Shown in pieces: positions 6,666 to 10,546 of a stretch of 64,000 nt of DNA; within the stretch, counting starts at the first letter, position 1; every line of letters starts with the position of its first letter. This stretch comes from an uncultured Alphaproteobacteria bacterium (GTDB lineage Bacteria; Pseudomonadota; Alphaproteobacteria; Rs-D84). A program made the position numbers and the translations under genes. The DNA lies in assembly GCA_934272785.1 (NCBI GenBank), contig CAKQSE010000001.1, forward strand, positions 41,212-105,211, given 5' to 3'. Below the pieces are notes generated by a model. That model saw nothing but the letters and a program-made list of their open reading frames with translations. It did no database searches and was not told the origin of the DNA.

Positions 6666-9600
6666 ATGGCGTTAGCCGATGACAAAATACAATTGTTTGA
6701 TAATATAAATAATAGATTGGCTGACGATCTGAAAAATGAGATACGAAAGCATTCAAAGTTGTCTATAGCGGCGGCTTGTTTTTCTATCTATGCGTATCAA
6801 AATTTGAAAAAACAATTAGAAAATATTGATGAACTGCGTTTTATTTTTACGTCTCCGACATTTTTGAATGGGGTGCCTCATAAAGAGCAGCGCGAATTTT
6901 ATATTCCACGTCAAGAACGTGAGCAAAGTCTGTATGGAACTGATTTTGAATTGCGGTTGCGCAATCAGATGACGCAAAAAGCCATATCAAAAGAATGTGC
7001 AGACTGGATTCGGGCCAAGGTTCAATTTAAGTCTAATAAAACAAATCGTTTTATTCAGCCTTTTATAAATATTGATGGTAGCTATACCTACATTGGTACA
7101 AATGGTTTTACTACAACTGATTTGGGAACAGAAAAAGGCAATGCGTTGGCGATGTATATAACCAGATTGGGAAATGAAAACAGCAAACAGTATCTACATT
7201 TGTTTGATGAAATATGGAATGACCCAGAACAAATGGAAGATGTTAAACAGAAAATTTTGGAACATATTGAAATAATTTATGCCGAAAATGCACCAGAATA
7301 TATTTATATGGTTACGCTGTATAATATATTTAAAGAGTTTTTGAACGATATTTCCGATGATGTTTTGCCGAATGAGGCCACAGGCTTTAAACAGAGTCAA
7401 ATTTGGAATAAGTTATATTCCTTTCAAAAGGATGCAGCACGAGATATTATTCATAAACTAGAAAAATATAACGGTTGTATTTTAGCAGATTCTGTCGGAC
7501 TCGGAAAAACATTTACTGCATTGGCGGTGGTAAAATATTATGAGTGCAGAAATAAAAGTGTATTGGTTTTATGTCCTAAGAAATTACAGGACAATTGGAC
7601 AACGTACAAAGAAAATTACCTGAACAACCCCATTGCTAAGGATAGACTGCGTTATGATGTGTTGTATCATACTGATTTGTCGCGCGATCACGGTATGTCT
7701 GGTGGTATAGATTTGTCCAAAATAAATTGGGGTAATTATGATTTACTGGTTATTGATGAAAGTCATAATTTTAGAAATGGCGGCAAGACTACTGTTGATG
7801 AAGATGGAATTGAAACGTATAACCGTTACAATCAATTGATGGAAAAAGTTATAAAATCTGGTGTTAAGACCAAAGTTTTAATGTTGTCTGCGACCCCAGT
7901 GAATAATCGTTTTGTTGATTTGAAATACCAATTGGAATTGGCGTACGAAGGCATGGAAGATGAACTGAATGAAAAACTAAATACGAAAAAAAGTTTGTCT
8001 ATCATATTTAATAATGCCCAGCGCGCGTTTAATGATTGGAGTAAATTGCCAGAGGAAAAACGCACCACAGAAGAGCTGCAGGGCAGATTGGATCAGGATT
8101 TTTTTGAGGTTTTGGATTCTGTCACAATTGCTAGAAGTCGTAAGCAGATTGAAAAAAGTTATAATATGGCAGAAATTGGGAAATTTCCGACGCGTCTGGA
8201 ACCGGATAATAGATATCCAGCAATTACACTTGATGACAGTTTGGGGATAAACTATGCAGACTTGTTTGGTAAACTGGAACGAGTGTATCTGAGTGTTTAT
8301 TCTCCGTCAAAATTTATATTCCCAAGTAAAGTGCAAAAATATGAGGAGAAATACGGTAAAAAAGCAGGCAAAGGTATTTCGTTGACCGGTCGTGAAATGG
8401 GAACACGCAAATTGATGGCTATCAATTTGATGAAGCGTTTAGAAAGTTCGTGGTTCTCATTTTATGAAACTGCAAAATCCATAGCCAGCAAAATAGACCA
8501 TGCAATAAACGCGATAGAGAAGTTTAAGAACTCTAAGGCTGCCAAAGGACTTAAGTTTAGTATTGAAGATATAGATGACGATGAAATAACGACCTATGGA
8601 GAATATAGTGTTGATTTCAATGACATGGATTATGAAACTTGGCTGCACGAATTGCAAAATGACCAAGAGATATTCAAGAATATTGTGGATCTATTCAGCC
8701 GTATGACCCCGGAATTGGACAACAAATTAAACGAATTAAAATCTATTATTAAAAATAAAATAGAACATCCATTAAATGCAAATAATAAAAAGGTACTGAT
8801 ATTTACGGCATGGGCCGATACCGCACAATACTTGTACGACAATATATCAAAATATGTATCGAAAGAATTTGGTTTGAACACAGGTGTTGTGACTGGTGAT
8901 GCGAATACCAGTGATTCCACAATTAAACGCAATGGTGACAAAGGTAAATTTGATTTCAATGAATTGTTAACAATGTTTTCACCGGTATCCAAGGATCGTG
9001 ATGTGTTGAACAATATGCCATCCGAAGATATTGATATTTTGATTGGTACAGACTGCATCAGTGAGGGTCAAAACTTGCAAGATTGCGATTACATGGTGAA
9101 TTTTGATATCCATTGGAATCCGGTCCGTATTGTTCAACGTTTTGGGCGTATTGACCGTATCGGCAGTCGGAATGATAGAATTCAAATGGTGAATTTTTGG
9201 CCAGAACAAGAACTGGATAAGTATATTGATTTGACCAATCGGGTGCAAAATCGCATGGTTGGTGTTGCTATGGCTGGTGCCGGCATGAATGTTATTGGCC
9301 AAGATCAAGATCTGCAATACAGAAAGGCGCAACTAGAAAGAATCAAGACAGAAACACCTGATCTGGAAGATATGAGTACTGGGGTAAACATCATGGATTT
9401 AGGTCTAAATGAATTTAGATTAGAGGTTGTTGATTACCGTAAATTACATCCAGAAATTGAATGCGCGGCCAAGGGTATGCATGCAGTTGTTGCGGCAAGC
9501 CATGATGCGCCGTCTGGCGTCATATTTATACTGCGTAATGTAAATAATGGTGACAAGATAGATAGACAGAACAGAATCCATCCTTTTTATATGGTGTATT

Positions 9601-9911
9601 TGTCCAATTCTGGTGATGTTATCTGTGATCATTTAAGTGCTAAAAAGATGTTGGATATTATGGGACGATTGTGTAAGGGCAAAACCGCACCAGACAAAAA
9701 GCTGTGTCAGGCATTTAATGCGGAAACCAAAGATGGGTTTGATATGAAACATTATTCAGATATGTTGAACAAATCTATTCAAACAATCATAAATGTCAAA
9801 GAAGAATCCGATGTGAATAGCATATTTAGCTATGGCGGGTCAACGTTGGGAATAAACAATATCAGTGGGTTGGATGATTTTGAATTAATTTGCTTTGTGG
9901 TGGTAAAATGA
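6666..9911 (+). CDS. SNF2-family (Rad54-like) DEAD/DEAH-box helicase with ~250-aa N-terminal extension
   Basis: Motif I ILADSVGLGKTFTALAVV, motif II LLVIDESHNFRN, motif III LMLSATPVNNRF, and motif VI HWNPVRIVQRFGRIDRIGS. The N-terminal ~250 aa has no intact HxK…D motif and may be a degenerate PLD-like domain. ATG 6666 has an RBS aaaaagg. Confidence 0.85.
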   Translation: MALADDKIQLFDNINNRLADDLKNEIRKHSKLSIAAACFSIYAYQNLKKQLENIDELRFIFTSPTFLNGVPHKEQREFYIPRQEREQSLYGTDFELRLRNQMTQKAISKECADWIRAKVQFKSNKTNRFIQPFINIDGSYTYIGTNGFTTTDLGTEKGNALAMYITRLGNENSKQYLHLFDEIWNDPEQMEDVKQKILEHIEIIYAENAPEYIYMVTLYNIFKEFLNDISDDVLPNEATGFKQSQIWNKLYSFQKDAARDIIHKLEKYNGCILADSVGLGKTFTALAVVKYYECRNKSVLVLCPKKLQDNWTTYKENYLNNPIAKDRLRYDVLYHTDLSRDHGMSGGIDLSKINWGNYDLLVIDESHNFRNGGKTTVDEDGIETYNRYNQLMEKVIKSGVKTKVLMLSATPVNNRFVDLKYQLELAYEGMEDELNEKLNTKKSLSIIFNNAQRAFNDWSKLPEEKRTTEELQGRLDQDFFEVLDSVTIARSRKQIEKSYNMAEIGKFPTRLEPDNRYPAITLDDSLGINYADLFGKLERVYLSVYSPSKFIFPSKVQKYEEKYGKKAGKGISLTGREMGTRKLMAINLMKRLESSWFSFYETAKSIASKIDHAINAIEKFKNSKAAKGLKFSIEDIDDDEITTYGEYSVDFNDMDYETWLHELQNDQEIFKNIVDLFSRMTPELDNKLNELKSIIKNKIEHPLNANNKKVLIFTAWADTAQYLYDNISKYVSKEFGLNTGVVTGDANTSDSTIKRNGDKGKFDFNELLTMFSPVSKDRDVLNNMPSEDIDILIGTDCISEGQNLQDCDYMVNFDIHWNPVRIVQRFGRIDRIGSRNDRIQMVNFWPEQELDKYIDLTNRVQNRMVGVAMAGAGMNVIGQDQDLQYRKAQLERIKTETPDLEDMSTGVNIMDLGLNEFRLEVVDYRKLHPEIECAAKGMHAVVAASHDAPSGVIFILRNVNNGDKIDRQNRIHPFYMVYLSNSGDVICDHLSAKKMLDIMGRLCKGKTAPDKKLCQAFNAETKDGFDMKHYSDMLNKSIQTIINVKEESDVNSIFSYGGSTLGINNISGLDDFELICFVVVK

Positions 9912-10546
9912 ATTGGCCAAAATCAACAGAAATAGGTAAATTTTTATCCAAAGAAAGCTTTTATTCACATGATGCTGTATCGGGGGCGTTACGTCAGGTG
10001 CTGGTGGATGATGTTGAAAAAATTACGATATCGCACCGTTTTGCCAAAGATACATTGAATGTGGACGCTGGTACAGAATTTCCAGAAATATTGGTTTTGC
10101 ATATTAAATTAAAGCGTTGCGCAATCAACGAAAAATTGTTAAACGCCTTGGATAAATCTATCTGTGCCGGATATGTATTGTTTGTATTGGAATATATAGA
10201 TATGCAGTGCGCCAGCATTTCGCATAAAACAATTAATTCAAAGGGCGATAGCGTAATTGATAAACGGTGGACGACCGATTGGATGGATGATTTGAATCTG
10301 GAGTTACATGGAACAACTTTGGATCGGGTATATCAAGATTTAGTTAAACAAATATCCGGTGGGCGCGTGAAAACAACCGATAATAATCTGATGCAGGCGG
10401 TTGAACGCGATATAGAACGGACGAGTCTTGAAAGACAAATCGCCGATTTGGAAAGAAAACTGCAAAATACCGTTCAAGTAAATAAAAAATTTGAAATAAA
10501 AGACCAAATTCGTAAAATAGAGGCGAAAGTAAAGGATTTGTCATGA
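9908..10546 (+). CDS. hypothetical protein (~212 aa), possibly DUF4391-like, coupled to the SNF2 helicase
   Basis: Its ATG overlaps the helicase stop (ATGA) and its stop overlaps the next start, so it is co-transcribed. I recall DUF4391 proteins of this size recurring between a helicase-related protein and Type III mod genes, but I recognise no DUF4391 signature in the sequence itself. Confidence 0.55.
   Translation: MNWPKSTEIGKFLSKESFYSHDAVSGALRQVLVDDVEKITISHRFAKDTLNVDAGTEFPEILVLHIKLKRCAINEKLLNALDKSICAGYVLFVLEYIDMQCASISHKTINSKGDSVIDKRWTTDWMDDLNLELHGTTLDRVYQDLVKQISGGRVKTTDNNLMQAVERDIERTSLERQIADLERKLQNTVQVNKKFEIKDQIRKIEAKVKDLS

Follow-up and report, generated by a model that had tools for sequence, protein, structure and literature searches.

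An SNF2-family helicase gene and a small gene overlapping its stop codon lie ahead of the Type III restriction-modification genes mod and res in an uncultured Alphaproteobacteria bacterium (lineage Rs-D84), and this locus raises the question of whether the two upstream genes belong to the restriction system or merely stand beside it. The DNA analyzed, here called the window, is a stretch of 64,000 nucleotides (contig CAKQSE010000001.1, positions 41,212 to 105,211). A sequence-only reading had proposed that the small protein belongs to family DUF4391 and that the pair is a conserved, functionally uncharacterised module that joins Type III systems. That reading is essentially right. Positions 6666-16946 are one co-directional operon, a four-component variant of a Type III restriction-modification system, and the locus is a member of a widespread, uncharacterised variant of that type. 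As the best explanation of the data, we consider it probable that the helicase and DUF4391 act as a motor module that aids Mod and Res. The genes of the operon, with lengths in amino acids (aa) and the searches that identify them, are these:

6666..9911, plus strand: SNF2-family helicase/translocase with predicted N-terminal pseudo-PLD domain, 1081 aa (Pfam, PADLOC, PHROG, motifs I-VI)
9908..10546, plus strand: DUF4391 protein, 212 aa (Pfam PF14335)
10543..12009, plus strand: guest gene, 488 aa, with Schlafen/AlbA_2, HATPase_c_4 and a Fic-like C-terminal winged helix; its start overlaps the DUF4391 stop (Pfam)
12009..13925, plus strand: Type III Mod methyltransferase, 638 aa (PF01555; PADLOC MTase_III, E 1.5e-204)
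13944..16946, plus strand: Type III Res, 1000 aa, an SF2 ATPase with a C-terminal PD-(D/E)xK endonuclease domain (ResIII, RE_endonuc; PADLOC REase_III, E 1.7e-291)

The core order is SNF2 helicase, DUF4391, Mod, Res, with one guest gene between DUF4391 and Mod in the window. All large open reading frames (ORFs) of the genomic island that holds the operon are on the plus strand, and a hairpin search found no strong terminator within 6666-16946. The adjacent mod and res genes, Mod then Res, are identified by their family matches as a Type III restriction-modification pair; the Mod translation contains IDPPYNTG and the Res translation PDW...ETK, and the variable central target-recognition region of Mod, at about 12581-13286, is seen as a gap in nucleotide homology. 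Res scored 396.1 bits against the NCBIfam equivalog for the EcoP15I type (PRK15483), below its cut-off of 564, and is best placed in a related but separate subfamily. An E. coli homologue of this Res is named 'type III restriction-modification system endonuclease' in RefSeq.

Conservation and co-divergence of the cassette

The census of loci, designated by L numbers, covers plasmid records, viral contigs and one contig look-up, and a scan of genome contigs gave nine close relatives. In 31/31 non-identical loci the helicase gene is upstream of DUF4391 on the same strand, directly adjacent in 29; of the non-adjacent cases, L022 has a 500-aa ORF between the two genes and the Lactococcus locus L034 has an IS712 element that splits the helicase. 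Of the 25 loci with enough downstream sequence, 23 have Type III mod and res genes after the pair, in the same orientation. The sandwiching of DUF4391 between a helicase and a Type III mod gene, which the sequence-only reading had described as recurrent, is thereby borne out across loci, but in the window mod does not follow directly, as the Schlafen/AlbA_2 guest intervenes. The loci come from Alphaproteobacteria, Gammaproteobacteria, Actinomycetota, Bacillota and the methanogenic archaeon Methanomethylovorans:

9 genome loci, from metagenome-assembled genomes (MAGs) of gut and rumen Alphaproteobacteria: helicase, DUF4391, Mod, Res
15 viral-contig loci, a clade about 33% identical to the window protein: same order where sequence permits
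7 plasmid loci with 21-28% DUF4391 identity, from Mycolicibacterium, E. coli (IncF), Phaeobacter, Photobacterium, Methylotuvimicrobium, Acinetobacter and the archaeon Methanomethylovorans: same order, one strand
Listeria and Lactococcus plasmids: same order, with the Lactococcus helicase split by IS712

Ten further near-identical copies of one mobilisable element (L037-L046) keep the order with guest genes in between. The helicase family occurs on 160 plasmid records, 117 of them with a full-length copy, and related Res genes on 287. Among 5426 complete genomes, 10 contain the E. coli version, at 11 places in all, 10 of them on plasmids. Relaxase genes flank some cassettes.

Both exceptions to the presence of mod and res downstream are decayed loci: L024 has a truncated helicase among conjugation genes, and L011 keeps a mod remnant only. 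Among the sampled loci no intact helicase-DUF4391 pair was found without mod-res. Mod-res is, however, found without the pair. On the Enterococcus faecalis plasmid pE006-19 (L035, 5803-6043), which also carries the resistance genes poxtA and fexB, a deletion fuses codons 1-31 of the helicase to the final 57 of DUF4391, in an in-frame-like manner, directly upstream of full-length mod and res; this arrangement is a deletion derivative of the four-gene cassette. A Staphylococcus epidermidis plasmid encodes the same Res subfamily (about 47% identity) with Mod alone and no trace of the pair. Because mod-res is kept after loss of the pair, the pair is an accessory module, not required to keep Res harmless, and a protective or antitoxin-like part for it is less likely. 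The dependence is one-way within the sampled loci, where the pair depends on Mod-Res. The earlier proposal that the pair joins Type III systems therefore stands, with the qualification from the pE006-19 deletion that the pair is dispensable for keeping mod-res.

Co-divergence was measured as the correlation of protein distances, with a Mantel test, over 19 complete cassettes. The correlation was r = 0.95 for helicase and DUF4391, 0.83 for helicase and Res, and 0.82 for Mod and Res (Mantel p = 0.0005 each). Of the four proteins, conservation by mean distance is strongest in the helicase (0.42) and weakest in DUF4391 (0.64). At unsaturated divergence, the ratio of nonsynonymous to synonymous substitution rates (dN/dS) was 0.01-0.04 for the helicase, 0.06-0.14 for DUF4391 and about 0.04-0.05 for Res, which points to purifying selection on both helicase and DUF4391. 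From the ratios and distances together, DUF4391 is a real, constrained protein evolving several times faster than the helicase, and the two proteins form one co-evolving unit. At short range the cassette behaves as two modules: in the comparisons of L002 with L004 and of L006 with L007, helicase-DUF4391 is nearly identical (dS 0.1-0.2) and Mod-Res has a dN of about 0.34-0.36. Recombination therefore takes place at or near the DUF4391/mod junction.

The helicase and its DUF4391 partner

The helicase reading frame is open over 6657-9911 on the plus strand, with its start at the ATG at 6666, preceded by aaaaaggtg. Both it and the DUF4391 ORF are long and have highly significant family matches, and so are not chance features. 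The claim that the helicase has all SF2/SNF2 motifs is upheld, with motifs I-VI found (I GLGKT278, Ia LCPK302, II DESH364, III SATP408, IV LIFT711, V GTDC794, VI QRFGRIDR824) and Pfam thresholds passed by SNF2-rel_dom at aa 254-424 (43.6 bits, cut-off 24.9) and Helicase_C at aa 691-833 (56.3 bits, cut-off 23.5). The protein is accordingly classed by its motifs in the SNF2 family of SF2 ATPases, with every motor motif intact. Residues 10-1080 align with positions 4-947 of 948 in the PADLOC model PDLC01075 ('C3a139, HKD+Snf2'; E 1.5e-113), and the protein also matches PHROG 26785 (E 3e-224). A search of PDB with the whole-length sequence gave matches confined to the SNF2 motor. Three regions can be recognized:

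6666..7175, plus strand: predicted PLD-fold domain (aa 1-170) without the HxK catalytic motif and with a conserved insert (AlphaFold (AF2) model, Foldseek)
7416..9215, plus strand: SNF2 motor, comprising RecA-like lobe 1 (aa 251-430), a helical insert (aa 431-690) and lobe 2 (aa 691-850) (Pfam, PDB sequence search, motifs)
9216..9908, plus strand: conserved C-terminal domain (aa 851-1081), ending in a G(L/I)(D/N/E)DFE(L/V) tail (14-member comparison)

No Pfam family, PLDc included, matches the first 250 aa of the helicase even at E <= 10. An AlphaFold model of this region, built from an alignment of 54 sequences (mean pLDDT, the predicted local distance difference test, 73.7), has 26 Foldseek matches in PDB at E <= 0.001, and all those read are structures of the PLD superfamily. 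Among them are the catalytic proteins PssA (phosphatidylserine synthase), SauUSI, the NgoAVII R protein, Streptomyces PLD, Nuc, NucT and PLD3, with SauUSI (7CLG; E 7e-5, template modelling score 0.45) among the best; the non-catalytic PLD-like domains of FAM83, MITD1 and TrmBL2 are matched as well. The model thus assigns a predicted PLD fold to aa 1-170. The HxK motif is absent from the first 250 aa. The same region has 2373 homologues in the protein collection, and 14 diverse family members, taken from the window, gut MAGs, viral contigs, five bacterial plasmids and one archaeal plasmid, were aligned. No column of aa 1-170 in this alignment has 50% His or more. The strand expected to bear HxK(x)4D reads FIQPFINID in the window helicase and is not conserved in the family. 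Conservation falls instead on a DN near the start, AAACFS, FIFTSPTF, K118 and F.SN, and on a long insert of the form REFYIPR...LYG.EFE..LRN...Q.A...ECA.W. The head of the helicase is therefore best described as a pseudo-PLD domain that has lost its catalytic motif and been kept for a non-catalytic purpose. This agrees with the degenerate PLD-like N-terminus first noticed in the sequence, but not with local decay: because bacterial and archaeal members alike are without a conserved His or HxK, loss of the HKD site is ancient and family-wide, not recent or local. The C-terminal domain of about 230 aa is conserved across the 14 members to the same degree as the pseudo-PLD domain; aa 851-1081 have no Pfam match.

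The second ORF begins at an ATG at 9908 that overlaps the helicase TGA at 9909-9911 (aaATGAat), the ATGA overlap noted earlier. Its assignment to DUF4391, which the sequence-only reading could not prove, is confirmed by a whole-length match to PF14335 (E 1.4e-43; 149.9 bits, cut-off 29.9), in which aa 1-207 align with positions 1-231 of the 232-position profile. At 50% identity the family falls into 1621 clusters. No PADLOC model matches DUF4391. The AlphaFold model is of moderate quality (pLDDT 66.6) and shows an alpha/beta core at about aa 26-122 (helix 26-35, strands 36-45 and 61-68, helix 75-84, strands 89-96, 99-109 and 115-122), followed by long C-terminal helices with a coiled coil at about aa 159-211. 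Foldseek found no credible fold relative for this model in PDB (best E 0.05) or BFVD (best E 0.03), and a profile from 116 DUF4391 sequences matched only coiled-coil proteins among PDB sequences, through its C-terminal part only. A diverse alignment of 21 sequences shows K15, E60, L68, K107, W125, D139, Y142 and L181 to be invariant, with D82 nearly so, and contains no recognisable catalytic motif.

Two other ideas about DUF4391 were considered. Identification as a PD-(D/E)xK nuclease is not supported, though still conceivable given the moderate quality of the model: the modelled strand order misfits that fold, and no conserved (D/E)xK surrounds K107. Gene-wide positive selection is ruled out by the dN/dS of 0.06-0.14.

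Plasmids of Bacillota encode a shorter homologue of 185 aa (Listeria L036, 11202-11756; Lactococcus L034, 5583-6137). The Listeria copy is named 'hypothetical protein' in RefSeq, and counts of DUF4391 that depend on annotation therefore underestimate the module.

Guest genes and the surrounding island

The Schlafen/AlbA_2 guest occupies the slot between DUF4391 and mod in some loci only, and other loci have other guests or fusions, as follows:

Schlafen/AlbA_2 guest: window, L002, L007, L008, L018, L029
TIR protein guests: L016, L022
RhuM guest: L022
GmrSD, ThsA-Macro with ThsB-TIR (a Thoeris-like pair) and DUF1016/YhcG guests: one mobilisable element, L037-L046
ASCH domain fused to the helicase N-terminus: L023 (6142-6600), L037-L046
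ASCH domain fused to the DUF4391 C-terminus: protein P0205 (aa 244-301)

The mobilisable element is the extreme case, in that each scaffold junction of L037-L046 bears other defence genes. In L037 (3248-17657) the order is HTH (helix-turn-helix), ASCH-SNF2 helicase, GmrSD, DUF4391, ThsA-Macro, ThsB-TIR, a 122-aa ORF, Mod, DUF1016/YhcG, Res, YjbR. The four-gene cassette acts as a co-oriented landing pad for guest defence genes. The occurrence of ASCH on either partner fits the view that helicase and DUF4391 form a single complex handling nucleic acid, and hints that the helicase N-terminus and the DUF4391 C-terminus may lie close together in such a complex and that the module reads nucleic acid.

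Within the guest gene of the window, positions 11761-11814 are a perfect 12-nt tandem repeat, CAAGTTACTCAA, in 4.5 copies. It encodes QVTQ repeats, which sit just ahead of the C-terminal winged helix of the guest protein. The repeat unit is in frame, so that a change in copy number would alter the length of a linker and would not turn the gene off.

The operon lies in a low-GC island of about 6100-19300, with a GC fraction of about 0.35-0.43 compared to 0.47-0.51 in the flanks. Its features outside the operon, and the extent of nucleotide homology, are these:

6082..6102, no strand: terminator-like bidirectional hairpin at the left island edge, where GC drops from about 0.48 to 0.35 (hairpin search)
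6614..16938, plus strand: cassette with nucleotide homology to MAG cassettes (nucleotide comparison)
17140..17646, plus strand: DUF2924 protein, 168 aa, directly upstream of the serine recombinase gene and overlapping its start (Pfam)
17633..19198, plus strand: large serine recombinase gene, interrupted at 17837-17839 by a TAG in frame (Pfam, translation)
19218..19243: terminator hairpin just inside the tRNA-Gln edge (hairpin search)
19371..19444, minus strand: tRNA-Gln at the right island edge (tRNA search)

Within the first 24 kb of the window, only 6614-16938 has such homology, at 66-85% identity to cassettes in gut and rumen MAGs of 'Ca. Enterousia' and other Alphaproteobacteria. The nearest, of the 'Ca. 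Enterousia' type, have 74-85% nucleotide identity to the window cassette, with a gap over the Mod recognition region. The GC fraction of the cassette, 0.35-0.38, is the native value of 'Ca. Enterousia' and related MAGs; that of the window flanks is 0.48. The TAG splits the serine recombinase into a 68-aa N-terminal piece with the catalytic-serine region and the remaining 450 aa. The gene is likely a pseudogene, a sequencing error being possible, and the island may therefore be immobilised. Taken together, the island looks like a recent horizontal acquisition whose recombinase gene is now disrupted.

In the window no regulator gene precedes the helicase; upstream lie a non-coding, AT-rich stretch of about 550 bp and, on the opposite strand, an ORF of 77 aa (6300-6533). 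Elsewhere a small regulator-like gene, of XRE-type HTH, WYL or RelB/DinJ type, is often found directly upstream of the helicase (L026 5526-5711; L031 5520-5720; L037 3248-3478; L030 5141-5644; hits H74-H76 and H85).

Proposed function, rival explanations and known systems

In the mechanism that we consider probable, Mod and Res would provide sequence recognition, the self-marking methyl group and the sole evident nuclease, the PD-(D/E)xK domain of Res, while the helicase-DUF4391 complex would be an ATP-driven motor on double-stranded DNA that acts on the same unmethylated DNA and strengthens or extends restriction. Classical Type III enzymes slide passively and depend on paired sites in inverse orientation; one possible way for the motor to help would be to travel actively along DNA, gathering Res complexes or pushing past obstacles. 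The dead PLD domain could be a DNA-binding, end-binding or dimerisation module, the PLD domains of SauUSI being known to dimerise, and DUF4391 with its coiled coil could be an adaptor or regulator of the motor. We put forward more tentatively, and regard as doubtful, the wider proposal that the pair makes the Type III enzyme a distinct four-component machine, spread by plasmids through bacteria and archaea, in which the translocase gives directed long-range communication and lifts the need for paired inverted sites, and in which the cassette is a scaffold that recruits and co-expresses defence genes.

Several points weigh against a motor that assists restriction. The mechanism draws on general knowledge of SNF2 translocases and Type III enzymes, and any physical contact of helicase-DUF4391 with Mod or Res is hypothetical. 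The Mod-Res proteins differ by more than 35% between L002 and L004 and between L006 and L007. With near-identical pairs standing beside such divergent Mod-Res, any interaction would have to be via conserved surfaces or DNA. Since guests are able to insert at each core junction, the core genes need not be tightly coupled in translation. The last 230 aa of the helicase appear to fall outside any assigned family. An adaptor role for DUF4391 is a default reading of a moderate model with no fold match, and a cryptic enzymatic role may be possible, given that K15, E60, K107 and D139 are invariant and D82 nearly so.

Each of three rival explanations fits the data less well than a motor module aiding Mod-Res. 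We think it unlikely that helicase and DUF4391 are an autonomous two-gene defence system merely clustered with Type III genes, as happens in defence islands. Autonomy would agree with the independent recombination of the pair, with the persistence of Mod-Res after its loss, with the free insertion of TIR, GmrSD, Thoeris-like and Schlafen genes in the same cassette, and with the core place of SNF2 proteins in other systems such as Hma (PMC11232893) and Zorya (ZorD). Loose clustering would not, however, yield an order and orientation fixed in 31/31 loci from two domains of life; the deep co-divergence with Res (r = 0.83) and the sampled loci, in which no intact pair was found without mod-res, also speak against it, and a pair whose PLD site is dead would be left with no evident effector.

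Less probable still is a safety or control device that removes or restrains Res on host DNA, serving restriction alleviation or establishment after transfer. SNF2 motors such as RapA do strip proteins from DNA, the association with mobile elements is strong (160 plasmid records, and relaxase genes flanking some cassettes), and a small HTH, WYL or RelB-type gene is often upstream. Such a device is nevertheless hard to reconcile with the natural helicase-DUF4391 deletion, after which mod and res ORFs of full length persist on a resistance plasmid in circulation, or with Staphylococcus epidermidis plasmids that carry the same Res subfamily without the pair, so that Res is tolerated. Least probable of the three is a sensor or guard that detects phage interference with restriction, or modified phage DNA, and triggers the guest effectors. 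Guest effectors do cluster beside DUF4391 (Schlafen/AlbA_2 in the window; TIR, Thoeris-like and GmrSD elsewhere), ASCH, from a fold group that reads modified nucleic acids, is fused to either partner, and a role in sensing nucleic acids has been suggested for inactive nuclease domains of defence helicases (PMC12839542). Yet many cassettes are without any guest (for example L003-L006, L010, L013, L026, L027 and L030-L032), and the guests are mutually unrelated, so triggering them cannot be the conserved core function.

Type III enzymes have been studied for decades as two-subunit machines, while a large share of their plasmid-borne relatives carry two extra conserved genes. If the proposed motor alters how these enzymes find or cut DNA, the rules by which phages and plasmids escape Type III restriction would need revision, and a function would be gained both for DUF4391 and for a family-wide dead PLD domain. 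The presence of the cassette on natural plasmids of E. coli, Listeria, Enterococcus and Lactococcus opens it to direct genetics, and the cassette may matter for plasmid spread and for the phage resistance of dairy strains.

Full-text literature searches found no paper describing DUF4391 or the four-gene arrangement, with DUF4391 mentioned only in passing; this is consistent with the pair being functionally uncharacterised. PLD-SNF helicase genes beside other restriction-modification genes have been noted in passing (PMC9881135). The window helicase matches PADLOC PDLC01075 end to end, but that entry is a hidden Markov model label with no described system found for it, and the helicase family is without HxK despite the 'HKD' in the name. 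Class 1 DISARM, which consists of the SNF2 helicase DrmD, the methylase DrmMI, DrmA, DrmB and the PLD nuclease DrmC, is similar in having an SNF2 helicase beside an adenine methylase, a PLD-fold domain and a second SF2 helicase. It differs in that the PLD domain of the window system is fused and inactive, and its nuclease-helicase is a genuine Type III Res. After PDLC01075, the helicase matches DrmD models best (145.8 bits against a cut-off of 610, and 108 against 950), and Pfam and PADLOC searches found no DrmA or DrmB (DUF1998) gene in the operon. Identification of the helicase as a DISARM DrmD was rejected on these scores, far below cut-off, and on the absence of both genes.

SauUSI, a Type IV ATP-dependent restriction enzyme (PDB 7CLG), likewise has an N-terminal PLD fold followed by an SF2 helicase. 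It is a single polypeptide with an intact HKD nuclease that targets modified cytosine, whereas the window protein has a dead site, an SNF2-type motor and a tie to a methylase-dependent system. The lactococcal AbiRc, described as a SauUSI-like N-terminal domain with an SNF2-like ATPase and small partner proteins, and as toxic without its cognate methylase (PMC13064643), resembles the window helicase in layout, by description only; its partners are sigma-70-like and ParB-like proteins, not DUF4391, and it is linked to a Type II system. Phage defence also employs SNF2 motors in Hma (HmaA) and Zorya ZorD, which match the window helicase weakly, in the motor domain. Both have an active PD-(D/E)xK or Mrr-like nuclease in the same chain, where the window helicase has none, and HmaA requires both its helicase and nuclease domains (PMC11232893). 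Classical Type III enzymes (EcoP15I and EcoP1I, Mod2Res) share with the window a beta-class N6/N4 Mod (PF01555) with a variable central region, a mod gene before res, and a Res made of an SF2 ATPase and a C-terminal PD-(D/E)xK nuclease. The window cassette differs from them in its other Res subfamily and in the pseudo-PLD SNF2 helicase and DUF4391 that it carries upstream.

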